From the IMG/VR virus record IMGVR_UViG_3300010396_000052, positions 1 through 53,003 of that record: 53,003 nt of DNA. One strand, written 5' to 3'. Below the pieces are notes generated by a model, which was given only the letters and a program-made list of their open reading frames with translations, was not told where the DNA came from and ran no database searches. Source of the stretch: a virus. Taxonomy: Duplodnaviria; Caudoviricetes. The position numbers and the translations under genes are program-made. Shown piece by piece: positions 1 to 42,999 of the stretch. Within the stretch, counting starts at the first letter, position 1. Each line of letters starts with the position of its first letter.

Positions 1-704
1 AAAGCGTGACGCTTATCAGGCGTCGCGGCTCTGTGCGGATGTTTTGGATGAAACCTGTTATGGGCTGCTACCGCACGTAGCGCCCGCTTTAGGTTTAATC
101 GTTTAGTTCTATAAATTGGATCAGGTTGCGCATCTTTTATTATTGGAGTTCGGGACTTCCGAGGCGAGGGTTTCCCCTTGCATATACCAAACAGCCTCTC
201 CGGGCTGAGTGTGTTTCGCATGAATCCCCCTAAACATATTTACGGCCTAAGTACACGCTTAATCCTGCAAATACACCTATCCAAAATCCAAACCAGTACG
301 CTTATCACCAGATAGGCCGGTGACAGTATTAACGCTACGCCTGTCAGAACGTAGGCTACAGGTTTAGATACCATATAACACCAAGACAAACTAATAGAGC
401 CGCTGCTAGTAATGCTGTGACAACCGCCATTGCGAATAAAATATCCGCCAAAAGATGCAGAAGATCGTTCGCAGTTACCATAAAGTTCACCGCTTTCGAT
501 AGTGTCGATACTCCGCTGCGACCCCGCGCAGAAATAGCAGGGACAACACAATACTTGAAGCTGCGACTATTACTTCTTTAATAATCACGGACTGCGAGCC
601 TTTGCCCCATTTCTCGGGCTGCGAACAGTTTAACCGTTTATCCCTAAATTGCGGGCTGCGATCATTTTTCGATTCCGCTGCCCGTTCTTCCATTCTACAC
701 AACC

Positions 705-733
705 ATTATAACATAATATGTGCTTATTGTCAA
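705..733 (-). promoter_or_regulatory. sigma70 promoter, perfect consensus, leftward
   Basis: Minus strand reads TTGACA-17 nt-TATAAT, with TG in the extended -10 position; small leftward ORFs lie downstream. Confidence 0.9.
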
Positions 734-804
734 GTTTCTGGTTTGGTGTATTGCTAGGGTGGTGTTGTAGTTGACTATATCACCGCAACGCAACATTTAA
801 GGAC

Positions 805-841
805 AAAAAAAGACCCTAGCCGGAGCGAGCCAGCTAGGGTC
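805..841 (-). terminator. Rho-independent terminator after the 901-1863 gene
   Basis: Minus strand GACCCTAGC(T)GG...CC(G)GCTAGGGTC stem followed by T7. Confidence 0.85.
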
Positions 842-900
842 AAAAGGCCGACGGTGCGGGAGAATCCGGGGGGGGATTCAAACCGTCGGCTAGGGGACGT

Positions 901-1863
901 TTACTTCCGCTTCCGCTTCGGGTTGGGCTTGCCATTCTCCGCGGTCTGTCGCGCAGTCTCGGCAGCGTTGTCACGCTCCAAGGCCTCCGCGGCCTCCGCG
1001 TCTAACTCGGCATTTCCCGTTGTGGCTTCGGCCACCGCTGGATGCGCTTTGATCCAATCCGCATGCATGGTTGCCATGCTATTGGAGAAAGCTTTGATTG
1101 CCTCCACCGCGCGGGGCGCCTCCTCTGTGCTGAACGTCGCGAACACTGCCGCCAGATGCCCGAGAGCGACCGAAATATCGGTATGCATGCCGCGCTCTAC
1201 CAGCGCAAGCTGCAGTTTCTTTCCGGTCGGATCTTTGGTGCCTTCCTGACGATTGCCGCGGCCTTGGTCAGCGCCCGGCTTATCCTTGCCAGCCTTCCGG
1301 TAATCCGCTGCCGTGCTGAACACGAAAGCGTCACCGGCATCGCGCCGCAGAGGATTCAGGTCCGGATTCGTCGCAGCCTTCTGGAGAGTCTTGAGACAGT
1401 CCGACTTGTATGTGCTCCAAGTCGGGCATATCTCGGAAACAGGCTCTTCCTTCAGGCCGTTGGTGTCTTCCTTGTACTTCGATTTCATCGTGTCTTCGGC
1501 TATCTTCAGGCCGACGATGGCGTACCCGTAGGCGTACCGCATATCGTTCCCTGCCTGTTCGACTGCCGCGCGGATGACCCTCAGAACACAGTCGCCCGCG
1601 AGTCCTTTCTTGCTTTCGAGACGGTCGGCCAGTACTCCGATACCGTCTACCTTGTCGAACTGCAGCGCATAGGCCGCTGCACCTTGCTGCTGAGCGAGGG
1701 TACGATAGGCAGGTGTGACCTGCTCTTCCGTTACCTTCACTTCCGGTTCGCTACCAGCACGGCCATTTGGCAGTACCTTCGCGGACTTGACAGCAGGTCC
1801 GTTACCGTCGCCGGCCTCAGTCGCCAGCGCTGCACGGAACTTTCGATCTATGTGAGTGAACAT
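901..1863 (-). CDS. Hypothetical early protein (~320 aa), apparently under LexA control
   Basis: Long ORF; ATG at 1863 follows a GAAGGA RBS; has its own promoter and terminator; no family recognised. Confidence 0.8.
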   Translation of the reverse strand: MFTHIDRKFRAALATEAGDGNGPAVKSAKVLPNGRAGSEPEVKVTEEQVTPAYRTLAQQQGAAAYALQFDKVDGIGVLADRLESKKGLAGDCVLRVIRAAVEQAGNDMRYAYGYAIVGLKIAEDTMKSKYKEDTNGLKEEPVSEICPTWSTYKSDCLKTLQKAATNPDLNPLRRDAGDAFVFSTAADYRKAGKDKPGADQGRGNRQEGTKDPTGKKLQLALVERGMHTDISVALGHLAAVFATFSTEEAPRAVEAIKAFSNSMATMHADWIKAHPAVAEATTGNAELDAEAAEALERDNAAETARQTAENGKPNPKRKRK

Positions 1864-1938
1864 AAGTGGATTCCTTCTAAATGGTTGACGCACCTATCCC
1901 GCGCCCCGTAGATTTGGGACTCGGTTTCGGTGCGCTAG

Positions 1939-1951
1939 TTGTTAAAGAACG
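1939..1951 (-). promoter_or_regulatory. boxA-like antitermination element
   Basis: Minus strand CGTTCTTTAACAA versus rrn/lambda boxA GCTCTTTAACA, in the 5' leader of the 901-1863 gene. Confidence 0.55.
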
Positions 1952-2034
1952 CTCGACAGAATCACGACAGCGGACCGGGGTCCTACCTTGCCGACTACTA
2001 AGTAGGGGTATCGCTTAGGAAGCGACTGATTCCC

Positions 2035-2054
2035 TACTGTTCATGCAACCAGTA
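2035..2054. promoter_or_regulatory. LexA (SOS) box overlapping the -10/+1 of a leftward promoter
   Basis: TACTGT-TCATGCAA-CCAGTA, i.e. CTG-N10-CAG with TA flanks. Confidence 0.7.
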
Positions 2055-2079
2055 TACGCGCATACATGGTCATTGTCAA
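2051..2079 (-). promoter_or_regulatory. sigma70 promoter, leftward
   Basis: Minus strand TTGACA-17 nt-TATACT. Confidence 0.85.
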
Positions 2080-2159
2080 ATTTCACTTGAAACAATTAGA
2101 ACGTGTCGAGAAGTTAAACGGTTAAGGTTTTGGAATGAGTTTAATAATGTAAGTTGTGG

Positions 2160-2175
2160 GCAAGAGGCGTGCCAG
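2160..2175 (-). promoter_or_regulatory. sigma54 (-24/-12) site 1
   Basis: Minus strand CTGGCACGCCTCTTGC = TGGCAC-N5-TTGC. Confidence 0.7.
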
Positions 2176-2189
2176 ACGGCTAAGCACCA

Positions 2190-2206
2190 TGCAATGTGCG
2201 TGCCAG
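2190..2206 (-). promoter_or_regulatory. sigma54 (-24/-12) site 2
   Basis: Minus strand CTGGCACGCACATTGCA; 31 bp from site 1. Confidence 0.75.
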
Positions 2207-2224
2207 ACTGTACAGATATACAGT
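2207..2224. promoter_or_regulatory. LexA (SOS) box abutting sigma54 site 2
   Basis: ACTGT-ACAGATAT-ACAGT = CTGT-N8-ACAG. Confidence 0.75.
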
Positions 2225-2328
2225 GCAAACGGCGATCTTTCTTTCTTGGGGGTTAGGTAGCGGGTATCGGGTTAACGGTTTATACGCCCTCCTATTGAGT
2301 CCTAGGCGTATGTACGCACATACAGATA

Positions 2329-2344
2329 TGGCACAGAATATGCA
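2329..2344 (+). promoter_or_regulatory. sigma54-like site, rightward
   Basis: TGGCAC-AGAAT-ATGCA (one mismatch at -12), preceded by the degenerate SOS box ATGT-N8-ACAG at 2310-2325. Confidence 0.5.
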
Positions 2345-2540
2345 TGCTCGATTCCTTATCTAAAAAACACGCCCAAGTGTCGCATTTAGGTATTGCATCT
2401 TGCGCGCATCGTGCTAGGGTGTGCATGCGACCCTGAGACCCGTAGTAGCTTAGGCGTACGGTATGGCGTTCGCGGGAAAGGCAGCACGGTAGACAATCCG
2501 CGCCCTAGTACCGAAACACTATCAAATAAAGGAGGATTTT

Positions 2541-2873
2541 ATGTTTTACGCGATTGTCCACGTAATGGATACCAACGGGGCATTTCTTGCTACCGTCGAG
2601 TGTTCGAGTCCGCAGTCTTTGGATAGCACACGGGAACGTATGCTCTCTTTGGACTACGTAGGCTCTGTCACTGTCGAGTATCCGGACCCGAGTGAGTACC
2701 TGTCAGATGCACAGATTGACAGTATGATCCGACTCGGCCTAGCGCGGACCTATCACGCGCCCATGTCGGGAGGCATCTTGCCTTTGAGTGGGAGTATCCC
2801 GTTGCCGCTGTATAACGCGCTACGCGCCCTTGCGTCGCGGGTATGGCATAGGGAGGTGGGTTATGGCGAGTAG
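2541..2873 (+). CDS. Hypothetical protein
   Basis: 110-aa ORF with a strong AAGGAGG RBS. Confidence 0.7.
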   Translation: MFYAIVHVMDTNGAFLATVECSSPQSLDSTRERMLSLDYVGSVTVEYPDPSEYLSDAQIDSMIRLGLARTYHAPMSGGILPLSGSIPLPLYNALRALASRVWHREVGYGE

Positions 2874-3087
2874 CGTCACCTGCCTTACGTGCAAGCGGCA
2901 CAAGCCTATCCACGCGTATCAGTGTCCGCACTGTGCTCCGCGTCCGCGGTACATCATGCGCGACTGGCGTGACCGTGCGGAGGCACGGAGCGTTAGGGTA
3001 CGGGAGCGGGTAGCGGTCTACATGCTGACCATTGGAGCGGTGCTTGTAGGCTTGCTATGCTTGGGCGTCATGCTGGCAGTAGGCTAG
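2863..3087 (+). CDS. Small Zn-ribbon plus transmembrane protein
   Basis: CLTC...CPHC and a C-terminal hydrophobic helix; GGAGG upstream of the ATG. Confidence 0.55.
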   Translation: MASSVTCLTCKRHKPIHAYQCPHCAPRPRYIMRDWRDRAEARSVRVRERVAVYMLTIGAVLVGLLCLGVMLAVG

Positions 3088-3579
3088 GCTAGGGCGTACG
3101 GGTCTCCAACGGATTGGGGACCTATACGCCCCCTCTGCAATAAGCGCGCCAAGCTGGAGTTGTAGTATTTTCGCAACAAATGGTGGGGCAATTTGCCATA
3201 ATCCCGGCATTTAGGGACCGAAAACCCCCTAGAAATAGGATCCAAGTTCAGGGATCCCGTCTGTACGCCGAGGGCCAAAAAGTGGTTACAGACCTACCGT
3301 GGTTACGGGCAACGTTGGTTTGGGGGCCAATTAGCGCAGTAAGGTACAGTGTAATAAAATCAAGGACTTAGGAAGCGTTTCCTTGCTTTGAAGGAAACGG
3401 TGAAATATATTTTCAAAATAGGGGAACTTTTTCGATTTTGAGTTGTCTAAGTAAACATTATTTTAGTTAAAACTTAACTTTACGTTAGTAATAGTTAAGG
3501 TTAGCTAAGCCTGTAAAAGGTTTAGATAACTAGTGTTGACTTACTGGAATATACCCTAAATTTACCCCCTTATAAGTTA

Positions 3580-3813
3580 TTGATTAATATGGGAAATGTG
3601 GTAGTCCTAGTACCCAAGCAAAGGGTGGATAGGACAGCCTTGGAAGCCAATCTACGGAAAGTAGAGAAAACTATGCCCTTTTTAAGGCGTCACCTTAAAG
3701 AACTGGCGGATAACCCGACTAAGCTCCACTTGGATCAAGTTAAGGCTAGTCTGGACCTAGTAAGACAATCCCTAGACTACATACAGTACACAATAAAGGA
3801 TCTCAAAGTATGA
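3580..3813 (+). CDS. Hypothetical helical protein, first gene of the late arm
   Basis: ORF after the AT-rich region; ATGA overlap with the next gene. Confidence 0.6.
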   Translation: MINMGNVVVLVPKQRVDRTALEANLRKVEKTMPFLRRHLKELADNPTKLHLDQVKASLDLVRQSLDYIQYTIKDLKV

Positions 3814-4049
3814 CCGACCCTACTCCTGCTCCCGATGCAGTTGCTCAAGCAGCCCCTAAGGTGGAAGCCAAGGCAGAGGCTGCCGTAGCTACTGTGGCCG
3901 CGGATGCTAAGGCCGTAGGTTCCGCAGTTAGCGGGGCTTGGGCTACCGTCAAGAAGTACGCTCCCCACGTAGCCACCGCGTCGGCGGGATACGTAGCCGG
4001 GCACTATACCGGGGCTATCGTCTTCGGAATTATCAAGCACATCGTCTAA
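3810..4049 (+). CDS. Ala-rich small membrane-associated protein
   Basis: Ala-rich N-terminus, hydrophobic C-terminus. Confidence 0.65.
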   Translation: MTDPTPAPDAVAQAAPKVEAKAEAAVATVAADAKAVGSAVSGAWATVKKYAPHVATASAGYVAGHYTGAIVFGIIKHIV

Positions 4050-4165
4050 GGTATGTGCCCGTTCTGCAGATTCATAAGGAATCTGGTAGGACTCCCCACC
4101 GTTAAACAGACCCCGGAAGGGTGGTACTGTTCACTACACGGGGACTTCAAGTCCCGGACCGATAG

Positions 4166-4366
4166 ATGCCCAAGTTGCAAACCCTTACCCGAGATAAGGT
4201 AATCGAATTCTATAGCTGCTCCCACGGGGACCTAGGAAGGCTCCTCCGGGACAAGCTTATGCCATTGCCCGTCCGGATTGAAGGGGAGATCCTCTGGTAC
4301 TTAGATGAACTAGAGGCTAGTAGGGAGAAGGTCTCGAAGATACTCAATTACCGGAAGAAGCACTAA
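4166..4366 (+). CDS. AlpA/Xis-like winged-helix DNA-binding protein
   Basis: LLRDKLMPLPVRIEGEILWYLDELE resembles the AlpA FPxPvkiG...W...Ev pattern. Confidence 0.55.
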   Translation: MPKLQTLTRDKVIEFYSCSHGDLGRLLRDKLMPLPVRIEGEILWYLDELEASREKVSKILNYRKKH

Positions 4367-4369
4367 CCT

Positions 4370-5398
4370 ATGCTGTTGATGACTAGTACCTCTGACCTAG
4401 TTCAGGTCGTTACAGGCTCAGCAGGGGCTATTGGGGTCCACGCTTCTTTCATGGATAATAATGCCGGGACTATCACCCCCGGACGTACGGATACAGCTAG
4501 TATTAGTACAGCTACCACTACTACGGTAGTAGCCTCCCCCGGAGCTAGCGTCCAGCGTAACGTTAAAGTCCTTAACATATTCAATACCCACGCCTCGGTA
4601 TCTAACCTTATTACGGTTAAGCACACCGACGGTACGAACCCCGAGACTCTCTGGCAGGGCACCCTCCTAGCCGGGGAATCAGTAGTTATGGATGAGGCTG
4701 GTGTCTGGACTAAGTACAGCGCAGCTGGAGAGCCTCAGATCGTAGGACTCCCGATCACTACCAAAGGGGATGTGATAGGATTCGATACTGCTCCTAATAG
4801 GATAGCAGTAGGTACGGATGGTCAGGTTCTCACCGCAGCCGCTTCCGCCACAGCAGGGGTTAAGTGGGCTACTCCAGTACTGGTTAACGCCTCTACTTCC
4901 ACGGTTTCTGCCTCCTTTGCCTCAGACACCTACCTAGCAGGGTCTAGCATCCTAATGCCGGCAGGCGGGCCAATAGCTAAAAGTATGTACCACTGCGTCT
5001 TTGATATGGTCAAGACGGCAGCAGGTACAGCAGCCTTCACGGTCAATCTTCGTTTCGGTACGGCGGGTACTACAGCCGATACCAGTCTAATTTCTTGGGC
5101 CTTCGCCGCTGGTACAGCCGCAGCTGATACTGGTATGTTCGAGGTCCGAGTCCATTTCCGCACCGTAGGTTCAGGAACCTCGGCGGTGGTTGTGGGCACC
5201 ATATTCTGCTCACACGCTCTAGCCGCGACCGGCCTCATCAGCACGGGGGCGTCAGGTTTCGGCCAGATCACGACCGTGTCGAGCGGATTCAATTCCACCA
5301 CAGCTAATGCCATTCTCGGGTTGTCCGTTAATGGTGGAGCTTCCTTCTCCGGCACGAACACTATCGTTCAGGCGAAGACCCTTAACCTGAGCATCTAA
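4370..5398 (+). CDS. Putative virion fibre/structural protein
   Basis: Thr/Ala/Gly-rich beta protein with a TTKGD...RIAVGTDGQVLTA...GVKW fibre segment. Confidence 0.65.
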   Translation: MLLMTSTSDLVQVVTGSAGAIGVHASFMDNNAGTITPGRTDTASISTATTTTVVASPGASVQRNVKVLNIFNTHASVSNLITVKHTDGTNPETLWQGTLLAGESVVMDEAGVWTKYSAAGEPQIVGLPITTKGDVIGFDTAPNRIAVGTDGQVLTAAASATAGVKWATPVLVNASTSTVSASFASDTYLAGSSILMPAGGPIAKSMYHCVFDMVKTAAGTAAFTVNLRFGTAGTTADTSLISWAFAAGTAAADTGMFEVRVHFRTVGSGTSAVVVGTIFCSHALAATGLISTGASGFGQITTVSSGFNSTTANAILGLSVNGGASFSGTNTIVQAKTLNLSI

Positions 5399-5399
5399 G

Positions 5400-6131
5400 A
5401 TGGCCTTCGGTGGCTTCGCAGTCACGTCCGCCACGGGCACCACCCTCGCTCTAAATGGGGTCACTGCTGGAGCTACTATCTGTGTACTCCCAGTAGATCT
5501 AAACGGGAATGCCACCAGCTTCGGAGCTACCGAGAATTCAGGAGCGGTAGTTTATAGCACTAGAGGTCCCACCTTTGGTACTTCGGGAGATACGAACTCC
5601 CAGTTGCTAATTCTCACGAATGCAGCCGGCGGCAACAGGACCATATCAGTTACCGCAGCCGGGGATACTGTAGAGGGCTTACTAGCTTTTTGGTACACCG
5701 GGGTGGGGGACGTAGACAACTCCCTTACAGCTTTAATCACTTCTCAGCCCACTATGAGCGCCGTAAAGAATAACGGTACTAGTGGGAACTTTACTCCGAT
5801 TACTCAAGGTTCTACGATTATCGGAGTAGCGATTAATCTCGTTAGTACTACAGCCCCGACTACTGGAACATCACCGTACGCATTTACTAGCCAATCCAGT
5901 GGTAATATCTCAGGCATTAATGGCTATTTAATAGAAGATGCTACTTGGATTAAGGGAACTACTAACGCCGCCTTCCAATACGGAGCAGGTTCTAATGCAA
6001 CCGGAATCGTTGGATTCGCCCTCCAGAATACTGCCCCCGGTGCTAGCAATATAATTACTCCGACCTATCCTCGTAAGAAATCGAGGCAGGGCGGATTGAC
6101 GATGGATCTCAATTTGACTGAGTGGTATTAG
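5400..6131 (+). CDS. Putative virion structural protein
   Basis: Thr/Gly/Ala-rich beta-type composition within the structural cluster. Confidence 0.55.
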   Translation: MAFGGFAVTSATGTTLALNGVTAGATICVLPVDLNGNATSFGATENSGAVVYSTRGPTFGTSGDTNSQLLILTNAAGGNRTISVTAAGDTVEGLLAFWYTGVGDVDNSLTALITSQPTMSAVKNNGTSGNFTPITQGSTIIGVAINLVSTTAPTTGTSPYAFTSQSSGNISGINGYLIEDATWIKGTTNAAFQYGAGSNATGIVGFALQNTAPGASNIITPTYPRKKSRQGGLTMDLNLTEWY

Positions 6132-9480: not shown

Positions 9481-10523
9481 CAGAAGTCACTGCATTAATA
9501 GATGTCGGTCCTCTAAAAGACGGGAAGCCAGACCTCTATAATCACATGCCTAATAGGCTTGTGCCCCTCGAAGAGGCTAAGAAGAACGAGTGGACGTACT
9601 TTTATGAAGCGCAGCTTTGTCGGTATGGTCATCAAGCTCCTAGATTCGTGTCTAATCCTCGTCTCTGCGTTGACTGTCACCGCGCTAAGCGTGGTAAGCC
9701 TCCTATTACTGCCGGGACTGCTACTGCTATGGCTGAGTACAAAGCTAAGCCGTATACTGAGAGAAAAGGCACAAACGTACCAATAGAGCCAGATAACAAA
9801 GAAAAGCACTTTCTTGGCATCTATGCACGCGAAAAAGACCTCAAAAAGGCCGCAAAACTGGCCGGATTGAGCGAATCTCAGATCCACTCACGACTTTCTT
9901 GGAGTAAAGTCTTCAAAGAGGCTTTTGAGGCTCTAGAAGACCGCTTAGGGATCAAAACTGTCGTCGAGCCCATCGGAAAATACCGCTGGACTAAGGAAAA
10001 ACGTGAAAGATTCATCGAAATTTTCGTTGATACTGGAGATGCAGCTACAGCCCGCGATTCCATCGCCGTCACTCCAAGTGAATACTTCAGGGAAATCGAG
10101 CGTAATGCTGATTTCGAGGCTGCCGTACTTGCTGCCACTCCCCTTGCCGCTAAAGCACTAGAAGAAAAGGCCATTCAGATGGCCTTAGCAGGTAACGATA
10201 AGTTACTTACTAAGGTTTTGTCAGCAAAAATGCCCGAATATCGAGATCGGGTTAATGTTGATATGAATGTGACGGAAAAACTGGATGATAGACAACTCAA
10301 TTCAAGACTCCTTAGGCTCCTTGGGAAGTTCCAAGGAAGCATTGTCGAAGGAGATTTCCAAGTTATCTCGGAAAGAGAAGATGGATCTTCTGGAGACGCT
10401 GGAAGAGTTGGACAAGAGAGAGTCTCAGAACCAAATCAAGAATTACTTCACTCTGGAGGGACCCTTTCGGAGGGATCTGTACCCGAAACAGTTGGAGTTC
10501 TTCCGTCTAGGGAAGAATCATAA
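9477..10523 (+). CDS. terS: Terminase small subunit (long form)
   Basis: Directly upstream of TerL; two HTH-like repeats, then an LEEKAIQMA...DKLL..VL...MPEYRD oligomerisation-type segment. Confidence 0.65.
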   Translation: MTEVTALIDVGPLKDGKPDLYNHMPNRLVPLEEAKKNEWTYFYEAQLCRYGHQAPRFVSNPRLCVDCHRAKRGKPPITAGTATAMAEYKAKPYTERKGTNVPIEPDNKEKHFLGIYAREKDLKKAAKLAGLSESQIHSRLSWSKVFKEAFEALEDRLGIKTVVEPIGKYRWTKEKRERFIEIFVDTGDAATARDSIAVTPSEYFREIERNADFEAAVLAATPLAAKALEEKAIQMALAGNDKLLTKVLSAKMPEYRDRVNVDMNVTEKLDDRQLNSRLLRLLGKFQGSIVEGDFQVISEREDGSSGDAGRVGQERVSEPNQELLHSGGTLSEGSVPETVGVLPSREES

Positions 10524-11064
10524 CGAACGTGCGCTATTGGGCGGCAATAGATCCGGCAAGACTGTCGCCGGAGGTTATGAAATGGCGTGCCACCTTACCG
10601 GTATATACCCGGATTGGTGGGAAGGCAAGAGATTTGACCACCCTATTGATGCGTGGTCTTGCGGCGATATCGCGAAGAACGTCCGGGATATTAACCAGAG
10701 GCGGATGATTGGCCCAGTAGGCTCTCAGGGCACCGGGATGATTCCCGGAGACATGATAGAGCGTTGCACCGTTAAGCATGGTATAGCGGATGCAGTAGAG
10801 TCGTGCTTCGTCAAGCACATTGCTGGCGGAAACTCCATGCTCCAATTTAAGAGCTATGACCAAGGTCGTGAAGCGTTTCAAGGTGTTTCTTGTCATGTCA
10901 TTCATCTTGACGAAGAATGCCCTATGGAGATTTACACAGAGTGTCTTCTCCGTACAATGACAGTTGACGGTATCTTATACCTCACAGCTACTCCACTCCT
11001 TGGGTTAACAGATATTATGCTGGCCTTTTTGCCGCATCTGGCCCCAGCGCCGGAAGTTAATTGA
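10285..11064 (+). CDS. terL: Terminase large subunit, N-terminal ATPase part (start uncertain, 10285-10381)
   Basis: YPKQ adenine-binding motif, Walker A GGNRSGKT, Walker B IHLDEE, coupling motif TATP; P22 gp2-like. Confidence 0.92.
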   Translation: MIDNSIQDSLGSLGSSKEALSKEISKLSRKEKMDLLETLEELDKRESQNQIKNYFTLEGPFRRDLYPKQLEFFRLGKNHNERALLGGNRSGKTVAGGYEMACHLTGIYPDWWEGKRFDHPIDAWSCGDIAKNVRDINQRRMIGPVGSQGTGMIPGDMIERCTVKHGIADAVESCFVKHIAGGNSMLQFKSYDQGREAFQGVSCHVIHLDEECPMEIYTECLLRTMTVDGILYLTATPLLGLTDIMLAFLPHLAPAPEVN

Positions 11065-11792
11065 AGGCCACAGTATTAGTCGGGTGGGACGATGTCCCTC
11101 ACCTGTCTAAGGATAAGAAGGACACCATTCTAGCATCTACTCCGCCTTGGCAGAGGGATGCGCGTACAAAGGGAATCCCGGAACTTGGTAAGGGTGCAGT
11201 TTTCACCATACCGGAATCTGACATTGTCGTTACCGGGTTCGATATCCCCAAACACTGGCCGAGAGCATATGGATTGGATGTTGGCTGGAACCGGACCGCA
11301 GCAGTATGGGGAGCCATCGACCGAGACACAGGCTCTGTGTATATCTACGACGAGTACTACCGGGGTCAGGCGGAACCCAGTGTCCACGCAGCTGCTATTA
11401 AATCCCGCGGTGATTGGATACCGGGAGCTATTGACCCAGCCTCACGAGGGCGTACTCAAACGGATGGTGCGCAGCTTCTCGAACTTTACACGCAGCTTGG
11501 GCTGCACGTTGATATTGCTTACAATGTCCGTGAAGCGGGTATTTACACGGTCTGGGAAATGCTCAGCCAAGGCCGATTGAAGATTTTCAACCACTGCAAG
11601 AATGTAATGGCTGAGTACCGAATCTACCGCAGAGACGAAAAGGGACAAGTCGTCAAAAAGAACGATCACCTTATGGACGCTCTCAGGTACTTCGTAATGA
11701 CAGGAATGGAAATAGCTAAGGTCCAGCCCACAGGTCGTGCGGATGGTAGACCTTGGTGGTATTGGTCCCCGCCAGAAGTGTGGGCCGGGTGA
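11061..11792 (+). CDS. terL: Terminase large subunit, C-terminal lid and RNase H-like nuclease part
   Basis: WDDVPHL, RDARTKGIP, GLDVGW and NDHLMDALRY; TTG start overlaps the upstream TGA. Confidence 0.92.
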   Translation: MKATVLVGWDDVPHLSKDKKDTILASTPPWQRDARTKGIPELGKGAVFTIPESDIVVTGFDIPKHWPRAYGLDVGWNRTAAVWGAIDRDTGSVYIYDEYYRGQAEPSVHAAAIKSRGDWIPGAIDPASRGRTQTDGAQLLELYTQLGLHVDIAYNVREAGIYTVWEMLSQGRLKIFNHCKNVMAEYRIYRRDEKGQVVKKNDHLMDALRYFVMTGMEIAKVQPTGRADGRPWWYWSPPEVWAG

Positions 11793-11804: not shown

Positions 11805-12011
11805 ATGGCAACTAGCGTAGTTATTAAAAATTCAAACGTCCGAAACTATCTAAAGATTGTGTCACAGGTCCCGGATACCAACAAGGTTGGTGTTAAGGTG
11901 GCTGGCAAGTGGAAGGATTCGGGCGCGGATAAGTTTGTTCCTCCGGGAGAGGTAGCTGAGATCTGGGTAGCAGCAGAACAGCGCTTTCTCATCGAGGAAA
12001 TGCCGACGTAA
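11805..12011 (+). CDS. Hypothetical protein
   Basis: Small ORF between TerL and portal; TAATG coupling to the portal gene. Confidence 0.65.
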   Translation: MATSVVIKNSNVRNYLKIVSQVPDTNKVGVKVAGKWKDSGADKFVPPGEVAEIWVAAEQRFLIEEMPT

Positions 12012-14320
12012 TGGATCGAACTCCGCCGAATCTATCTCCTCCAGACAATGAGACCTTAATCCAGCCGGATAAGGAGAATCTCATTGATCCAGAGGAGCTA
12101 CTCTCTCGTGTACGAGCAAGATACGATGATGGAGTAGGGGCGTTTGAGGAAAATCGGAGAATGCACTCCGAAGACCTCAATTTCGTCTATAATTCGGAGG
12201 CGATGGGTCAATGGGACCCAGTTGTTCTAGAAGCTCGTAGAGGCAAGCCCTGCTATACATTCAATAGGGTACTTGGACCTGTTAACTTAGTAGTTGCAGA
12301 TATGCGGCAGACCAGACCTGATATCAAGGTCCGGCCGGCATCCAAAGCAGCTAGCGAAGCAGTAGCGGATATCTTTGAAGGATTGATCCGGAGTATCGAC
12401 CAAGCCTCTAGAGCATCAGTTATTTATAAGAACCAGTTCAAGTTCGCTGTAGCTGGTGGATTTGGAGCTTGGCGAATCCTGCCGGAATATGCAGGAGAAG
12501 ATACCTTCGATCAGGTGCTTAGGATCAGGGATATCCCCAATCCTCAGACTGTGATTTGGGATCCAGAGTGCAGCGATGCCTGCGCCGGTGATGCGATGTG
12601 GTGCATCATTGGGGATCGTATCTCCAAAGAGAAGTACCGGACCTTATACCCGGATGCAGATTCAGAAAGCGCATTCCAGATCTCCCGCGACTCCTATGGT
12701 TGGTTTACCGACAAGGAAGTTCGCGTAGTCGAGTACATGGAACGTGTGCCGTTCAAGAAGATGATTGCGCTCTTGGACGATGGTCGAGTCGTAGATTACG
12801 ATTCTAAGACTAAGGCAGCAGCTGAACATATGGCTGATGCCCCCAATTCTCCCAAGATTATCAGCACTCGTGAAGTCCTTAAGTGGAGAGTAATGTGGTG
12901 TAAAGTGGATGGCGGACAACTATTAGAAGGCCCCATTTACTACGATTGGAAGCGTATTCCAGTTGTCCGAGTTCCCGGCCGATATATCAATATTGAAGGC
13001 CGTAAGAAGCTTCAATCCTTGGTGCGTCACACCAAAGATGCCCAGAGAGACTACAACACGATGCGGTCAGCAATGATCGAACGTGCTGCGATGATACCGA
13101 AAGCGCCCTACCTAGTTACAGAAACTATGGTTAAGGGCTATGAGTCCGAATGGGCTCAATCGAACACTTCTCCTCGTCCGTACCTGCCGTTTAATGTAGA
13201 TCCCAAGGCCAGTGAAATGGGCCGCGGGGGTCCAGAACGTGTCCCGCCTATTGACGTTCCTCAAGGCTCTATTGCCTTGGTTGAGCAGTCGGCGCAGGAC
13301 ATTCAGGCTACTATTGGATACTTCGATCCCGCAATGGGCAACGCGGAGGATATGAACCGCGTCTCGGGTAAGGCTCTCGTTCAACATACACGTCGTTCTG
13401 ACCTAAGCTCCTTCGAGTTCATCGACGGCTTAGGGGATGCCTTACAGCTTACCGGGGAAATGGAACTTGATATGATTCCCACCATTTATGTGGGAGAGCG
13501 TATTGAGCGCATTGTCAGCGGGGATGATATTGAGAAACTAATCACCATCAACCAGCAACAGGATGATGGCCAGATTGTTAATGATTTAAAAGCTGGTGCT
13601 TACGATTGTTCGGTTAATATCGGACCTAGCTACCAGACGGCACGTCAGGAAACCCTCCAGACCCTCATTGATGCGGCTGGAACTATACCGATGATTGCCC
13701 AAGTGGCTCCGGATCTCATTGCCAAGAATATTGATTCCCCGGATGCAGATGAACTGTCTCGTAGACTTCGTATCCCTCTAATCCATAATGGGATCATTAA
13801 GCCTACTGAGGAAGAGGCCAAGAATATGCCTCCTCCGCCTCCGCCTGATCCCCTCCAGCAGGCTGAGACAGAGCGTATGCAGGCTCTAGCCAAGCGTGAT
13901 GGCGCTAATGCTATTCTTGCTCAGAATGAGGTTCAGAACCTCCCACTTAAGAATAACAAGTTACTGTATGAGACCGCAGGGAAGCACTTAGATAACCTAA
14001 AGACTGGGGCTGATATGGGCAACTCTCAGGCTGCTGCACAAGCGGAAGCCCAGCAGGCCCAGCAGGAAGCCCAACAGAGTGCCCAGCAGCATCAACAGGA
14101 TATGGCTCAACAGCAGTCCGAAGGTGCTCAAGGTCTAGCTCAACAGACTGTCCAAGGCGCGATGGATCTCCATCAAGCCAATCAGCAACACAATGCTGAA
14201 ATGACTCGTACTGAACAGAAACACAAACAAGCAATGCAGCATGCCGAAGAGAAGCATGCTCAAGCTCTCAAACATGCCAAAGCCTTAGCTGCGGCAAAGC
14301 CTAAATCCACTTCTAAATAA
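12011..14320 (+). CDS. Portal protein, P22 gp1-like
   Basis: GQW, RPDIKVRP, GGFGAWR, LVRHTKDAQRDYN, SGKAL and YDCSVNIGPSYQTARQE motifs; Gln-rich C-terminal coiled coil. Confidence 0.93.
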   Translation: MDRTPPNLSPPDNETLIQPDKENLIDPEELLSRVRARYDDGVGAFEENRRMHSEDLNFVYNSEAMGQWDPVVLEARRGKPCYTFNRVLGPVNLVVADMRQTRPDIKVRPASKAASEAVADIFEGLIRSIDQASRASVIYKNQFKFAVAGGFGAWRILPEYAGEDTFDQVLRIRDIPNPQTVIWDPECSDACAGDAMWCIIGDRISKEKYRTLYPDADSESAFQISRDSYGWFTDKEVRVVEYMERVPFKKMIALLDDGRVVDYDSKTKAAAEHMADAPNSPKIISTREVLKWRVMWCKVDGGQLLEGPIYYDWKRIPVVRVPGRYINIEGRKKLQSLVRHTKDAQRDYNTMRSAMIERAAMIPKAPYLVTETMVKGYESEWAQSNTSPRPYLPFNVDPKASEMGRGGPERVPPIDVPQGSIALVEQSAQDIQATIGYFDPAMGNAEDMNRVSGKALVQHTRRSDLSSFEFIDGLGDALQLTGEMELDMIPTIYVGERIERIVSGDDIEKLITINQQQDDGQIVNDLKAGAYDCSVNIGPSYQTARQETLQTLIDAAGTIPMIAQVAPDLIAKNIDSPDADELSRRLRIPLIHNGIIKPTEEEAKNMPPPPPPDPLQQAETERMQALAKRDGANAILAQNEVQNLPLKNNKLLYETAGKHLDNLKTGADMGNSQAAAQAEAQQAQQEAQQSAQQHQQDMAQQQSEGAQGLAQQTVQGAMDLHQANQQHNAEMTRTEQKHKQAMQHAEEKHAQALKHAKALAAAKPKSTSK

Positions 14321-15398: not shown

Positions 15399-16661
15399 AT
15401 GGCTAATTCTCTCTTAACGGCACAGTGGGTCGCCCGCAAGGCACTCATCCTGTTGCACGCTAAGTCTAATATGACGGGTCGCACGAACCGCGACTACCAG
15501 TCGCTACTCCCCGGTCCAATTCAGGGTGTTGCACTAGGTCAGGTTCTTAGCATCCGGCTGCCGTTCCAGTACGTGGGACGTAAGGGTAACTTGATGAACG
15601 CTGAAAACAGCGTCCAGCGCTTTACTCAGTTGAACGTAAGTAATCAGCGTGGTGTTGATATCAACTTCACCAGCGTTGAGCGTGCAATGCAGTTGAATAA
15701 CTTCGAGGAGCAGGTGCTTGAGCCAGCAATGGCCAAGGTCGCTGCTCTGCTTGAGATCGACGTGGCCTCTCTGGTCAATCAGGTCCCGAAATTTGTTGGC
15801 ACGACCAGCACTTCAGTCTCTTTCAGCACGGTCCTCCAGTCCGAGCGGTTCTTGACGGAAGCTCTGGCCCCCGAAGACGACAAGCGTACGCTTACGGCAA
15901 ATCCGCAGGCTTCGTACGAGTTCGTCCTCGACAACAAGGCGCTGTTCAATCCTACGACCGAGATCTCCGATCAGTGGTTGGAGGGTGTCATTGCGGATAA
16001 GGTGGCGGGATACGTCGTCTTCCGTAATACGAAGCTGCCGGCTCATACCATTGGTGTCGTGACGGGTTCTACCCCGACCGTATCCGGTGCTGGGCAGGGC
16101 AATAGCGGCTTCGGCAACGCTTTCATCAGTTCAACGAGCCTCGTGACCAGCGGCTGGGCTTCTGGTGCTACTACCCTTCAGGCTGGAGACGTAATCACGA
16201 TCTCCAACGTGAATGATGTGGACCCGGAATCTAAGGTATCGCTTGGTCGTCTGAAGCAGTTCGTCGTGAATAGCACGGTCTCTGACACTGCCGGTGGAAT
16301 CACCGTCTCTATCAGTCCGGGCATTATGTACGGCGGATCGTATCAGAATGTGGACTCCCAGCCTGCGGCTGCTGCAACTATCACCGTGATGGGTGACGTG
16401 CCGGCCAACGTCTCGGGTGTGACGGTTAAGCAGTCTCTGGCTTGGTATCGCGACGCAATCGTGTTTGCCAATCCTCCGATGCTCGACCTGTCGCAGGTTG
16501 TCAAGTTTACCGCTCAGGAGAGCTTCGAGGGCTACAACCTTCGCTTTGCTCAACAGTGGGATGTGAACAGTGACCTGCTCCCGGCTCGCCTAGACACCAT
16601 TTCCGGTGAAACTCTTTCGTACCCCGAACTCGCGGTCCGAATGATTCATAAGCCGGCTTAA
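15399..16661 (+). CDS. Major capsid protein, P22 gp5-like
   Basis: MANSLLT, NRDY, IRLP, LEPAM, AGDVITI and RLD...G...YPELAVR motifs. Confidence 0.92.
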   Translation: MANSLLTAQWVARKALILLHAKSNMTGRTNRDYQSLLPGPIQGVALGQVLSIRLPFQYVGRKGNLMNAENSVQRFTQLNVSNQRGVDINFTSVERAMQLNNFEEQVLEPAMAKVAALLEIDVASLVNQVPKFVGTTSTSVSFSTVLQSERFLTEALAPEDDKRTLTANPQASYEFVLDNKALFNPTTEISDQWLEGVIADKVAGYVVFRNTKLPAHTIGVVTGSTPTVSGAGQGNSGFGNAFISSTSLVTSGWASGATTLQAGDVITISNVNDVDPESKVSLGRLKQFVVNSTVSDTAGGITVSISPGIMYGGSYQNVDSQPAAAATITVMGDVPANVSGVTVKQSLAWYRDAIVFANPPMLDLSQVVKFTAQESFEGYNLRFAQQWDVNSDLLPARLDTISGETLSYPELAVRMIHKPA

Positions 16662-18214: not shown

Positions 18215-18292
18215 CTGGGCGTAGCTCAGTCTGATTAGAGCGCCCGGCCCGGAACCGGGAGGCCGTGGGTTTGAATCCTACCGTCCAGACCA
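18215..18292 (+). tRNA. tRNA-Pro(CGG), non-canonical
   Basis: Full cloverleaf, C1-G72, A73, encoded CCA, anticodon loop CCCGGAA; carries C33, A37 and A19/U56. Confidence 0.9.
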
Positions 18293-18297
18293 AATTT

Positions 18298-18373
18298 GCG
18301 TTATAGCACGCGGGTCGTGCCGCCAGCCTTCCAAGCTGTGTAGATCAGGGTTCGATTCCCTAATGACGCTCCA
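18298..18373 (+). tRNA. tRNA-Gly(TCC), irregular
   Basis: GCG/CGC acceptor top, U73, CCA, anticodon loop CTTCCAA, T-loop TTCGATT; irregular D arm and junctions. Confidence 0.8.
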
Positions 18374-35298: not shown

Positions 35299-35640
35299 CT
35301 ACCTATTGTCTCCATTGCCACGGAGTACTCCCCTGTCCCTGCGAGAACTAAGCTTCTCCATGTTCGTTAAAATGATATCCTCTAAACTGATTCCGAAGTA
35401 GTTGGCAATCTTGGTCCAGTAAAAGATAACATCCCCTAGCTCCTTCTTAAGGGCATTCAGGTCCGGGAAGCCATCCCCACGGATATACTTCTTGATGATT
35501 TCTGTTACTTCTCCAGTCTCGCCAGCCATACCCAACTGGGCTACTGCGATACCAAGTTCTAAAGGCTTATCCTTGCCTGAAAACCACATTCGTTCCACAA
35601 AGGCAGTATATTCGTCTAATAGCTTAGGATCTTCGGTCAT
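35299..35640 (-). CDS. MazG-like NTP pyrophosphohydrolase
   Basis: LGMAGETGEV.E.IKK...KELGDV..Y...N.EKL..R..RG. Confidence 0.88.
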   Translation of the reverse strand: MTEDPKLLDEYTAFVERMWFSGKDKPLELGIAVAQLGMAGETGEVTEIIKKYIRGDGFPDLNALKKELGDVIFYWTKIANYFGISLEDIILTNMEKLSSRRDRGVLRGNGDNR

Positions 35641-37776: not shown

Positions 37777-38205
37777 TTAAGTTTTGACAATTCTTGTAGT
37801 TTTAGCTTTTCCATTTCTAATCAACAGTTCGAGTCTAGCAAGGGCGTTCCAAGCCACTTGTGCTGCGTGGTGAAATCCTGACTCCGGATCTAAGCCGTCC
37901 ACGTCCACGAACTCCCCGTTGAGGTGCCGTTCCAAGGCGTCACTGTAACGGTTGTACCCGTCTGGTACGCGTAACCAATTAACGTCGGAATAGACCAAGG
38001 AGTACTTGTCAAGACCGTATTTGGATACGTTTGCGACGGCTGTGAGGGCGTTTGGGAAATATTGTCTGAGTCCTTGGTAGAGAGGAGTTCTGCCACTGTC
38101 ATATTTCTTACCCGGATTTGGGCTTATTAAGCCACCTTCTTGGGATGGTTCCAACGGCGTAATCAAAGCCGTGTTTTGTGCACCAATCACTGTATCTTTG
38201 CTCAC
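37777..38205 (-). CDS. dATP/dGTP diphosphohydrolase-like (DUF5664-type) protein
   Basis: GKKYDSG...V..YG..KY...NW...RY.DAL.RHL...DPESG.HH.A..AWNAL. Confidence 0.8.
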   Translation of the reverse strand: MSKDTVIGAQNTALITPLEPSQEGGLISPNPGKKYDSGRTPLYQGLRQYFPNALTAVANVSKYGLDKYSLVYSDVNWLRVPDGYNRYSDALERHLNGEFVDVDGLDPESGFHHAAQVAWNALARLELLIRNGKAKTTRIVKT

Positions 38206-38557
38206 TATTCTTTTGTAGTTTATTATCTGTAGCGAAGTAGAGTACTATCTTTCGATCTGGATTAGATTCCCGCACTGCGAGCATCTTTGCTCGGTCGGAG
38301 GCGGTGAATCTCCCCTTGACTTCCATGATGATTCCGTTATCGAGGACGAAGTCTGGGGTGTAGGTCGCTTCTTTGTAGACGAGTTTGCTGCCACAAGTCT
38401 GACAAATTCCCTTGCGCACTCTCTTTTTAACCACAAGCCGAAGAGATTCATACTCGAATCCCACGGCTTTGGTCCCGAGAGTTTCTGCAACTTTCTCTTC
38501 GAGCCCACTGCGATATCCCGACTTCCGCTTCTTACCCCATTGCCAATTCCTTGGCAT
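38108..38557 (-). CDS. T7 endonuclease I-like Holliday junction resolvase
   Basis: YRSGLE, YTPDF.L.NGII.EVKGRF...DR.KM; Zn-ribbon insertion. Confidence 0.9.
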   Translation of the reverse strand: MPRNWQWGKKRKSGYRSGLEEKVAETLGTKAVGFEYESLRLVVKKRVRKGICQTCGSKLVYKEATYTPDFVLDNGIIMEVKGRFTASDRAKMLAVRESNPDRKIVLYFATDNKLQKNSEQRYSDWCTKHGFDYAVGTIPRRWLNKPKSG

Positions 38558-39039
38558 TAGGCGACGGCAGCCGTCGATGCCAATTGCGCAACCTTCTCTC
38601 CCTTATGATTGACAAGGTTTACGAACATACTATCGTGTACCATATCCAGCACTAATTCTGGAGTAATATCCAATAGCACCATAGTACCATTCGGCAGGAA
38701 GTCGATAGCCTTAAACTCGAACCCATTCAGGAGTCCAACCGTAGCTTCGAGCTTCGCTCCACGGCTACTAGTCCAGCGTGGCAGAAAGACGATTCCTCCA
38801 ATCCCACCGTCAGCGAGTAGCTTAACGTCCCGCGCAAGGAAATCACCCCACGACTTGTCTGACTTAGTGAGTATGCCATCGGTAGACTGGAGGGCCTTGC
38901 CCTTATCCTCCGAATCATCAATCTCAGCTGGGCTGACAATGTCATAACCCTTCTCACGTAGGAATGCTGCTGCCTTAAAGAACAGCGGGAAATTATACTG
39001 GGGGATACCCTGCATAGGACCTGCGAGGTAATACTTCAT
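38557..39039 (-). CDS. Nucleoside 2-deoxyribosyltransferase-like (DUF4406-type) protein
   Basis: YLAGPM.G.P.YN.P.F...SPAE...LP.W..SRGA.LE. Confidence 0.8.
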   Translation of the reverse strand: MKYYLAGPMQGIPQYNFPLFFKAAAFLREKGYDIVSPAEIDDSEDKGKALQSTDGILTKSDKSWGDFLARDVKLLADGGIGGIVFLPRWTSSRGAKLEATVGLLNGFEFKAIDFLPNGTMVLLDITPELVLDMVHDSMFVNLVNHKGEKVAQLASTAAVA

Positions 39040-41769: not shown

Positions 41770-42999
41770 TTAACCTTTAACACATAGCACCTGTTTCAGT
41801 TCAGCTACGATTTCTACTAGGTCTGATTGATTGTCCATAACCTCTTGGATATCTTTGTACGCAGCGGGGATTTCGTCGATAACATCCTTATCTTTGCGAC
41901 ACTCAACGCCTTTCGTTTGTTCCTCCAAGTCTTGGACGGTGAATTGAGCTTTAGCAGAACCTCTAGACATTCTCCGGCCTGCACCGTGCGAGCAAGAGCA
42001 GAAAGAGTCTTCATTTCCCTTTCCTCGGACGATAAAGGATCGTGCTCCCATGCTACCGGGGATAATTCCGAGATCGCCCGTTCTAGCTCGTACCGCACCC
42101 TTGCGAGTAACGTAGATATTTCGGCCAAAGTGATTCTCCTTAGCCACATAGTTGTGGTGACACTCGATAGCAGTCTGGTCGGACCCTAAAGCTCGAATAT
42201 CAGTGTGTTCAGCGACTGCCTTTTTGGCTGCCTCCATCATCAGGTAACGATTCATTGCTGCGTAATCTTGGCACCACGACAAAGCATCCCAATAGTCCTG
42301 AAAGTATTGGGAACCTTCTGGCAAGTAAGCTAGGTCGGCATCGGGGAGAACAATGTGCCATCTCTCCATCTCTTCCTTGGCCTTCGTGATAAAGTAGCGT
42401 CCGATAGCATTCCCTATACCACGGGAGCCGGAGTGGAGCATGAGCCATACGTTGTCCTCCTTATCTAGACAAAGTTCAACAAAGTGGTTTCCCGTCCCCA
42501 AGGTCCCAAGATGATTCCCGGCTCGCTTGTGGCTGCGAGTCAAGTGATGATGCTTGGAGTCCAGCAGAGCAAAACGAGGATCTTCGGACAACCAAGTCCA
42601 CGTCTTGACTACCTCCTCGGGCATAGTTCCCCAAGCCCCGTGATCGTTCGGACCACCGTTGTCGGTTCTTCCATGAGGTATAACCTTCTCCAACGAAGAC
42701 CTGATTCCACTCAAGGTATCCGGAAGGTCCGAGGCACGTAATGTCAGCTTGTGAGCCGTCATCCCACACCCAATATCTACGCCCACACTGGCAGGTATAA
42801 TCGCCCGATAGGTGGGAATCACACTCCCCACGGTAGATCCTTGTCCCCAGTGCACATCCGGCATCACCGCTATGTGGTGATGGATAAAGGGGAGCGAAGC
42901 AACGTTCCTCAACTGCTCCATCGCTCCTTCTTCCACATCGGTAGTCCATATCTTCACCGGAGCCTTTCCTTCATCTTTGAAGGCTAGTTTGATAGTCAT
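41770..42999 (-). CDS. rtcB: RNA 3'-phosphate/5'-OH ligase RtcB
   Basis: MPDVH, VGVDIGCG, GTLGTGNHF, LHSGSRG, HHNY, RKGA, PGSMG, SHGAGR, DEIPAAYK. Confidence 0.97.
   Translation of the reverse strand: MTIKLAFKDEGKAPVKIWTTDVEEGAMEQLRNVASLPFIHHHIAVMPDVHWGQGSTVGSVIPTYRAIIPASVGVDIGCGMTAHKLTLRASDLPDTLSGIRSSLEKVIPHGRTDNGGPNDHGAWGTMPEEVVKTWTWLSEDPRFALLDSKHHHLTRSHKRAGNHLGTLGTGNHFVELCLDKEDNVWLMLHSGSRGIGNAIGRYFITKAKEEMERWHIVLPDADLAYLPEGSQYFQDYWDALSWCQDYAAMNRYLMMEAAKKAVAEHTDIRALGSDQTAIECHHNYVAKENHFGRNIYVTRKGAVRARTGDLGIIPGSMGARSFIVRGKGNEDSFCSCSHGAGRRMSRGSAKAQFTVQDLEEQTKGVECRKDKDVIDEIPAAYKDIQEVMDNQSDLVEIVAELKQVLCVKG

Follow-up and report, generated by a model that had tools for sequence, protein, structure and literature searches.

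The question raised by this locus is whether a phage has placed its main control region in the hands of two host regulators, an alternative sigma factor known as sigma-54 (RpoN) and the SOS repressor LexA. The locus belongs to IMG/VR record IMGVR_UViG_3300010396_000052, a linear record of 53,003 base pairs (bp), estimated to be 89% complete, which was analyzed in its entirety and is called the window; judged by its genes, the phage is an uncultured soil podovirus with a P22-like portal and a T7-like replication module. A sequence-only reading of this DNA had reported three sigma-54-type sites at 2160-2344, two of them touched by an SOS-type palindrome, and had offered either promoters gated jointly by RpoN and LexA or parked sigma-54 polymerase acting as a roadblock, decoy or DNA-entry handle near the genome end. 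The three sites fall within the 650 bp (1864-2540) that form a divergent control region, with a leftward early arm on one side and a rightward structural arm on the other. This is the sole point in the contig where two gene arms diverge. The sigma-54-type cluster is far beyond chance, and we put at about even the probability that its members are real host RpoN -24/-12 promoters needing a host activator, with LexA-type boxes alongside.

Sigma-54-type sites and their chance expectation

Sites were scored over the 12 positions of TGGCACG-N4-TTGCW, the extended form of the sigma-54 (RpoN) -24/-12 promoter consensus of Proteobacteria. The two leftward copies of TGGCAC-N5-TTGC, whose starts are separated by 31 bp, were found as first described, TGGCACGCCTCTTGC at 2160-2174 (-) and TGGCACGCACATTGC at 2191-2205 (-), as was the rightward TGGCAC-N5-ATGC, TGGCACAGAATATGC at 2329-2343 (+); these are designated P1, P2 and P3 (Table 1). 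A fourth sigma-54-like site, P4, which was not in the earlier list, lies about 800 bp from the other three, so that all four fall within 1 kb and all are non-coding. In each of the four the GG and GC are exactly 10 bp apart, two being exact copies of TGGCAC-N5-TTGC and two having one mismatch. Downstream genes are correctly oriented for P1, P2 and P3, while P4 is without one, and folding of the RNA downstream of P4 was no better than in shuffled sequences (z = -0.56).

A genome-wide count of the motif had been named in the earlier reading as a test for enrichment. Exact TGGCAC-N5-TTGC occurs in the 53,003 bp only at P1 and P2, where about 0.1 occurrences would be expected from base composition, and with up to one mismatch there were 8 matches, compared with 2.90 +/- 1.53 in shuffled sequences and reached in 1 of 100 shuffles. 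Among 1000 sequences simulated from a first-order Markov model of the window, none had four sites of at least 10/12 within 1.2 kb and none had three sites of at least 11/12, both of which are present in the window. Eight window sites scored at least 10/12, and four of these were flagged as non-coding; a fifth, at 3136, was flagged as coding only through an unsupported 64-amino-acid (aa) frame kept by a crude open reading frame picker. Across about 1.03 Mb of related phage loci (1,025,867 bases) there were only 8 rows of at least 11/12, of which three were the P1/P2/P4 cluster, one was in the homologous control region of the relative G002, and four (three distinct sites) were coding.

Comparison of P1 with P2 is informative about how the pair arose. 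Their 18-nucleotide (nt) units are identical at 15 of 18 positions, with all three differences at N positions of the consensus, and the 13-nt spacers that follow them agree at 4 of 13 positions. Origin by a recent 31-bp tandem duplication was ruled out because the spacers are unrelated; the two copies match where the consensus is defined and diverge at its N positions and in the spacers, as selection would leave them and recent duplication would not. The 11-nt half-motif GTCTGGCACGC had 16 window matches at up to two mismatches where 11.3 were expected; it is thus not scattered over the genome, which speaks against an operator used throughout the phage.

The window contig is present in two soil metagenome DNA runs, X1 and X2, the only runs listed for it, and in no listed RNA run. 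A strain variant in X2, 98% identical, is represented by a 383-nt contig over 2035-2417 that has four substitutions and two indels. In this variant P1, P2 and the cores of the palindromes described below are unchanged, and P3 is altered at the non-consensus base 2340; with so few changes the variant is weak evidence either way. In X1 and in X2 another contig matches the window rightward from 3137 and differs to the left, which locates P4 at a mosaic junction (strain-variant breakpoint 3137). Positions 2601-3000 were covered by no contig of either run, and the genes at 2541-3087 may be a variable cassette bounded by P4.

SOS-type palindromes

LexA-like sites were scored against the 20-nt E. coli-type SOS consensus, which has a CTGT-N8-ACAG core. 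The perfect CTGT-N8-ACAG noticed earlier is CTGTACAGATATACAG at 2208-2223, 2 nt from the TGGCAC of P2, and is the window's only exact copy, about 0.8 being expected per window. The degenerate ATGT-N8-ACAG is ATGTACGCACATACAG at 2310-2325, which ends 3 nt before P3. These two cores belong to LexA-type box A and palindrome (box) B in Table 1, which abut the -24 elements of P2 and P3, respectively, and have TGTAC-N4-ATACAG in common. Counted from the predicted starts of P2 and P3 (2179 and 2355), box A is centered at -37 of P2 and -139.5 of P3 and box B at -37.5 of P3 and -138.5 of P2, so that the layout of the two is symmetric. A further LexA-like box, L, overlaps P_L, the leftward sigma-70 promoter, at its -10 hexamer and predicted start, a classic place for a repressor.

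In the 1,025,867 bases of related loci the sole other 20-mer of at least 15/20 was CACTGTATAGACATACAGTA, at 17/20, in the control region of the relative G021. This box is about 9.2 kb upstream of the portal gene, and box A is 9.8 kb upstream of the portal in the window. Over the whole window CTGT-N8-ACAG with up to one mismatch was not enriched, with 21 occurrences against 18.53 +/- 4.56 expected. The LexA reading draws on three things: the sequence of box A, the box in G021 that corresponds to it, and where box L is placed. Other kinds of site were considered for the palindromes: a NifA-type TGT-N10-ACA site was dismissed because the spacing here is N8, NtrC-type or IHF-type sites gave no fit by eye, and no match was made to the sites of named activators.

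Related phages

About 100 related viral contigs have the portal in common, with identities of 52-68% (of 109 candidate stretches, 99 could be confirmed and 80 were retained), and full-size relatives measure 57-61 kb. Five near-complete relatives, G001-G005, were compared, L105 being an identical copy of G001. Homologues of the 320-aa product of the first leftward gene were found only in G001 and G002, at 25-29% identity; a model of the three 320-aa homologues recovered G001 and G002 only and nothing in 30 further portal-related records, and the 320-aa and 110-aa proteins, as separate queries of viral and metagenome contigs, found no relatives.

In G002 the 840-bp control region has two sigma-54-like sites, TGGCACACTTTATGCT (10/12) and TGGTACGTTATTTGCT (11/12), both facing the 320-aa homologue. 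MAFFT aligned TGGTACGTTATTTGCT with P2, and the two lie at a similar distance upstream of a conserved sigma-70 promoter. G021 is a phage of 58% G+C with 65% portal identity, and its sole site of at least 10/12 is TGGCACACCCCCTGCA, 40 bp upstream of the first leftward gene, among 17,138 bases scanned (L006, which is the contig of 17,896 bases without its first 758). The seven control-region sites of the window, G002 and G021, phages that range from 47-58% G+C, share TGG, CAC/GC, TGC and the following A/T and little else. Such sharing of the sigma-54-defining positions alone would be expected if the common reader were a universal host factor and not a phage-specific protein.

Elsewhere in the clade, intergenic sites of at least 10/12 numbered 0 of 17 in G001 and G003-G005 and 1 of 16 in 22 further loci, so non-coding DNA as such is not enriched. 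Conservation in relatives, which the sequence-only reading had named as a check, gave a mixed picture: the same kind of site is present in G002 (two) and G021 (one), and there is none in the control region of G001 and none in the non-coding DNA of G003-G005. Two further observations concern these control regions. In G021 (L104 1240-1560) at least eight iterons, GTGGTGGCCAT / ATGGCCACCAC, occur in both orientations, and the array ends against the SOS-type box. In G002 (L083 800-830) ACTGTAT and ATACAGT arms lie 14 nt apart, 3 nt after the first sigma-54-like site, and this half-site is that of box A but with non-LexA spacing.

Regulators and host type

The earlier reading had recognized no enhancer-binding protein in the window, and this was borne out by PF00158, which had no match in any of the six frames; neither the PF00158 activator domain nor the sigma-54 DNA-binding domain (PF04552) matched in the window or in G001-G005. 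With no phage-encoded AAA+ activator, any activation must come from the host. The open reading frames scanned against Pfam or PHROGs showed no helix-turn-helix or other DNA-binding family, and no RNA polymerase, sigma factor, integrase or recognizable repressor was seen among those scanned in the window.

Clues to the host are an exact gamma-proteobacterial BoxA, the type of the SOS box, and the Gamma-/Betaproteobacteria hosts of distant portal relatives. Together they point to a beta- or gamma-proteobacterial host, and rpoN is usual in these groups. The best portal identity to cultured phages was 35.5%, the matches being P22-like portals in phages of Gamma-/Betaproteobacteria; megablast of window positions 1-6000 against cultured phages gave no match, and the portal protein as a query of genome contigs found no relative and hence gave no host assignment.

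Promoters and genes flanking the control region

P1 and P2 lie 81 and 112 bp upstream of the -35 of P_L and in the same direction. The GAAATTTGACA block of P_L is invariant in the window, G001 and G002. A second leftward sigma-70 promoter has a context 72% identical over 39 nt to the P_L region, and the two flank the 320-aa gene on either side. About 95 nt downstream of the predicted P_L start, in a structured leader (hairpins 1864-2050, -), is a BoxA-type element matching exactly the consensus GYTCTTTAANA, which is given as gamma-proteobacterial in the excerpted text of its source (PMC5725501). The corresponding elements are GCTCTTTAACA in G002 and ATTCTTTAACA in G001, the latter 10/11 to GYTCTTTAANA, and both the GAAATTTGACA block and BoxA are kept in the three phages despite a spread of 41 to 49% G+C. 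With its BoxA, the early arm may be transcribed past the terminator at 841-812 by means of Nus-factor antitermination.

The leftward promoters most likely head the early/replication arm, since the contig breaks at 1/53003 and the homologue in G002 heads a 27-kb arm. The notion of a DNA-entry handle near the genome end found no support, because position 1 is a contig break of an 89%-complete record and the complete relative G002 has the homologous region in the middle of its record, at approximately 33.2-34.0 kb of 60,967.

No function could be assigned to the 320-aa protein, which had a weak small-terminase match in PHROGs (E = 0.0047), matches only to unnamed viral clusters in the Atlas, and no match in Pfam. 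An Rfam scan of positions 1-4400 gave only a sub-threshold match, which was on the terminator hairpin at 812-841. On the other side of the control region, the first rightward gene (2541-2873) encodes 110 aa and has a strong Shine-Dalgarno sequence; the second encodes 74 aa with a CxxC...CxxC motif and a hydrophobic tail. Between 2100 and 2540 the scan showed nothing resembling a rightward sigma-70 promoter.

Table 1. Positions of sites, predicted signals and genes in the window
Feature	Position	Strand	Description
P1 (site 1)	2159..2174	-	TGGCACGCCTCTTGCC, 11/12; predicted start ~2148, leftward
P2 (site 2)	2190..2205	-	TGGCACGCACATTGCA, 12/12; predicted start ~2179, leftward; 31 bp upstream of P1
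P3 (site 3)	2329..2344	+	TGGCACAGAATATGCA, 10/12; predicted start ~2355, toward gene at 2541
P4 (fourth sigma-54-like site)	3136..3151	-	TGGCGCGCTTATTGCA, 11/12; non-coding, leftward
LexA-type box A	2206..2225		GACTGTACAGATATACAGTG, 16/20; exact CTGT-N8-ACAG core
Degenerate palindrome B	2308..2327		ATGT-N8-ACAG, 11/20
LexA-like box L	2035..2054		TACTGTTCATGCAACCAGTA, 14/20; CTGT-N8-CCAG
Leftward sigma-70 promoter P_L	2051..2079	-	TTGACA-17-TATACT, 11/12
Second leftward sigma-70 promoter	705..733	-	TTGACA-17-TATAAT with TG, 12/12
BoxA-type element	1940..1950	-	GTTCTTTAACA, exact match to GYTCTTTAANA; hairpins on both sides
First leftward gene	901..1863	-	320 aa; no function assigned
Intrinsic terminator-like hairpin and T run	812..841	-	after the 320-aa gene
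Two small rightward genes	2541..3087	+	downstream of P3
Large terminase pieces	10285-11792	+	
Portal	12011-14320	+	
Major head protein	15399-16661	+	
Family-A DNA polymerase	43174-45066	-	

Discussion

If the reading that we favor is correct, P1-P4 would be bound by host sigma-54 RNA polymerase and used as -24/-12 promoters. P1 and P2 would add an activator-dependent way into the early arm, lying upstream of the constitutive one through sigma-70 and BoxA, and P3 would be the best candidate promoter for the first rightward genes, since the sigma-70 scan found nothing there. A host enhancer-binding protein would be needed for open-complex formation at these promoters, which would add conditional inputs to the sigma-70 route. 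The early arm itself would consist of P_L, the BoxA leader, the 320-aa gene, the terminator, the second sigma-70 promoter and then the replication genes across the contig break. Boxes A, B and L would most simply be beta/gamma-proteobacterial LexA sites, and LexA bound to box L and next to the -24 elements of P2 and P3 would keep early transcription low until the DNA is damaged. Of the joint RpoN/LexA gating first proposed, the part that concerns the sequence stood and was strengthened by the scores of 10-12 of 12, the fourth site, the relatives, and the 16/20 of box A; we infer from this RpoN and LexA binding and promoter activity, along with the kind of activator and host. The gating itself is a reasonable hypothesis because the sigma-54 sites exceed chance and recur in relatives and because box A and the G021 box fit the SOS consensus, and it suggests that host stress regulators help set when phage genes switch on.

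Several observations weigh against this reading. A strong sigma-70 promoter already serves the 320-aa gene, for whose expression P1 and P2 are dispensable, and P4 is convergent with the + strand genes at 2541-3087, no product being obvious for it. The control region of G001 has no sigma-54-like site, though it shares the 320-aa gene, the sigma-70 promoter and BoxA, and the five near-complete relatives had 0 matches to exact TGGCAC-N5-TTGC. Together, the dispensability of P1 and P2, the convergence of P4 and the absence of sites from G001 weaken a promoter reading and leave room for decoys, insulators or other operators. In the strain variant of X2 a 1-nt deletion leaves P1 and P2 30 bp apart and not 31, so their helical phasing is not maintained strictly. 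The palindromes at -37 are too close to be enhancers for the adjacent promoter, no enhancer motif of a named activator was recognized, and a host rpoN, a suitable activator and an E. coli-type LexA are all assumptions. The LexA part has difficulties of its own: no sigma-70 promoter overlapping box A was recognized, no LexA-like box was found in the control regions of G001 and G002, palindrome B matches at only 11/20, three LexA-like sites (with up to one mismatch) within 300 bp were seen in 20 of 300 simulations, which is marginal, and a virulent-looking phage would not be expected to be LexA-held. Lastly, the portion of the genome-wide E. coli sigma-54 map drawn on here, made by chromatin immunoprecipitation sequencing, reports many sites that are bound yet transcriptionally inactive (PMC4591121).

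Such inactive binding, characteristic of sigma-54 at many sites according to that portion of the map (PMC4591121), is what might be expected if the sites bound sigma-54 holoenzyme unproductively, as decoys titrating host sigma-54 or as insulators or roadblocks between the arms. This would also fit the lack of an activator encoded by the phage or the five near-complete relatives, the sigma-70 promoter already present for the leftward gene, and the position of P4, which faces convergent genes exactly at the end of a gene block. The host pool of sigma-54 is scarce, and as decoys three or four high-affinity sites per replicating genome, in hundreds of genomes, could silence RpoN-dependent stress responses. 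However, 6 of the 7 sites in three phages point along downstream genes and the G021 site is 40 bp from a start codon, and since orientation and placement would be irrelevant to a decoy we consider this explanation unlikely. Another possibility is that a different protein uses the GTCTGGCACGC-N3-TTGC units and the palindromes TGTAC-N4-ATACAG as its operators, be it an early protein of the phage whose fold is unknown or a host regulator distinct from RpoN and LexA, and that their likeness to sigma-54 and SOS sites is coincidental. P1 and P2 do share four bases beyond the sigma-54 core (GTC before TGGCAC and C after TGGCACG), most small phage proteins are without a family so that an unrecognized regulator could be among them, and the array of at least eight GTGGTGGCCAT iterons in G021 indicates that these control regions do hold phage-specific repeats. 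Yet the four extra bases are absent from P3, P4 and the G002 and G021 sites, the set shared across three phages of 47-58% G+C is exactly that of the sigma-54-defining positions, the half-motif GTCTGGCACGC is not above chance elsewhere in the genome, and no DNA-binding family was found in the open reading frames scanned against Pfam and PHROGs, all of which makes a dedicated operator rather improbable.

The palindromes could alternatively be enhancer sites (upstream activating sequences) of a sigma-54 activator, each serving the opposite promoter from about -139. Enhancers typically lie 100-150 bp from sigma-54 promoters, and the symmetric layout, with A at -139.5 of P3 and B at -138.5 of P2, and the TGTAC-N4-ATACAG common to both are as this would predict. 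We nevertheless think it quite improbable, given that box A and the G021 box score 16/20 and 17/20 against the LexA consensus and agree with it even at flanking positions for which an unrelated protein would have no use, that the G021 box is about 490 bp from G021's only sigma-54-like site, and that the palindromes matched no named activator's site. Finally, the cluster might be a chance product of composition or local sequence history with no function. Each element is short, exact CTGT-N8-ACAG is expected about 0.8 times per window, and loose LexA-like clusters did appear in 20 of 300 simulations, but the sigma-54 cluster appeared in 0 of 1000, and the sites recur in the homologous region of two relatives while being otherwise almost absent from the non-coding DNA of the clade, so we believe chance to be highly improbable.

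Taken as host RpoN promoters with LexA-type boxes, the sites may be compared with several known systems. They resemble sigma-54 promoters of Proteobacteria in having GG and GC 10 bp apart, a 10-12 of 12 match, a non-coding location and genes downstream; they differ in being in a phage, with no cognate activator gene nearby and no named enhancer motif, in the tandem arrangement of P1 and P2 upstream of a sigma-70 promoter for the same gene, and in that P4 is without a downstream gene. In E. coli zraP and zraSR form a divergent sigma-54 operon pair with shared intergenic activator sites. P2 and P3 are likewise back-to-back, 123 bp apart, with two related palindromes between them, but these palindromes abut the -24 elements and are not central, and they resemble LexA boxes. 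The exact BoxA between hairpins in an early leader, with an intrinsic terminator downstream, is similar to BoxA antitermination in rrn operons and lambdoid nut sites, although the hairpin-BoxA-hairpin order is closer to an rrn leader than to lambda nut and no N-like protein was identified.

Among phages, the excerpted account of Pseudomonas phage YuA describes a sigma-54-like promoter, P015, beside sigma-70-like promoters, with its start mapped by ONT-cappable-seq (PMC10914365), and this is a precedent for a sigma-54-like promoter in a phage. YuA is a siphovirus and not among the relatives found; in that excerpt one such promoter is named, compared with four clustered in the window, and no LexA boxes are reported. 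A counterpart for the LexA boxes is GIL01, in which, according to the parts of two reports used here, host LexA on SOS boxes at the promoter P1 holds the phage silent (PMC4551915, PMC6182141). There as in the window, SOS-type boxes are at or beside promoters that start development, and no CI-type repressor was recognized in the window phage. On the same partial accounts GIL01, a tectivirus, is temperate, its host is Gram-positive and its box is of another kind, whereas the boxes here are of the CTGT-N8-ACAG type, two of them touch sigma-54 sites and not sigma-70 promoters, and temperateness is not indicated for the window phage.

A more elaborate and fairly unlikely possibility is that the clade has wired its control region to two host stress circuits without a regulator of its own, such that LexA, on the sigma-70 early promoter and beside the -24 elements, silences an incoming or carried genome, a host activator starts or boosts development through the sigma-54 promoters, and the multiplying sites drain sigma-54. 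By analogy with GIL01, the phage would lie dormant with no repressor of its own, except that here the replication module is T7-like; the activator might be one that infection or damage turns on, such as an RNA-repair or envelope-stress activator. In Salmonella the SOS response, prophage, the activator RtcR and RpoN are linked, according to the part of that report consulted (PMC9879122), which illustrates that circuits of this kind may intersect; no direct tie was found between the RtcB of the window phage and this circuit.

Sigma-54 promoters and SOS boxes are individually textbook elements, and phage early transcription is nearly always described as driven by sigma-70 or run by a phage polymerase, sigma-54 promoters being known from only a very small number of phages. 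The literature search found no description of consensus sigma-54 sites clustered both in tandem and divergently in the master control region of a phage, nor of such a cluster recurring across a small clade, and no case of phage sigma-54 promoters beyond YuA; the full-text search found no precedent for SOS-type boxes touching -24 elements. If the favored reading is true, a virulent-looking phage reads both the enhancer-dependent stress signalling and the SOS state of its host at the switch between its arms, using host proteins only, and the timing of infection depends on the physiological state of the host. It would also show LexA acting in nature on a sigma-54 promoter, a new regulatory arrangement, and it raises the question of whether phages titrate scarce sigma-54. 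The region concerned is a small one of about 350 bp; should its sites be inert, they are merely an oddity of one uncultured contig.

Other features of the genome

Outside the control region the genome falls into two arms. The + strand from 2541 to approximately 35176 has packaging and structural genes, including those for a scaffold protein and head-closure and adaptor proteins, and the - strand from 53003 down to 35299 has a T7-like replication gene set, which in addition to the polymerase in Table 1 encodes a DnaB-like helicase, a primase, exonucleases, endonuclease I, RtcB and an RNA ligase. Positions 1 and 53003 are contig breaks, and an open reading frame runs off the 53003 end. The large terminase consists of two adjoining open reading frames, 10285-11064 (ATPase part) and 11061-11792 (nuclease part), with a 4-nt overlap, which may reflect a split gene, frameshifting or an error in sequencing.

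Domains of MazG, PF18909 (the dATP/dGTP diphosphohydrolase N-terminal family) and DUF4406 are clustered at 35299-35640, 37777-38205 and 38557-39039 (-), which hints at nucleotide-pool editing or a modified DNA base. Two tRNAs, tRNA-Pro(CGG) and tRNA-Gly(TCC), are encoded at 18215-18373 (+); with RtcB and RNA ligase, at 41770-42999 and 45492-46124 (-), they make up a tRNA-repair kit of the kind that counters anticodon nucleases. Finally, a (C)GGGCTGCGA-like repeat occurs three times at 590-670, at intervals of about 37 bp, where the left end of the contig is non-coding, and could be an origin or a packaging signal.

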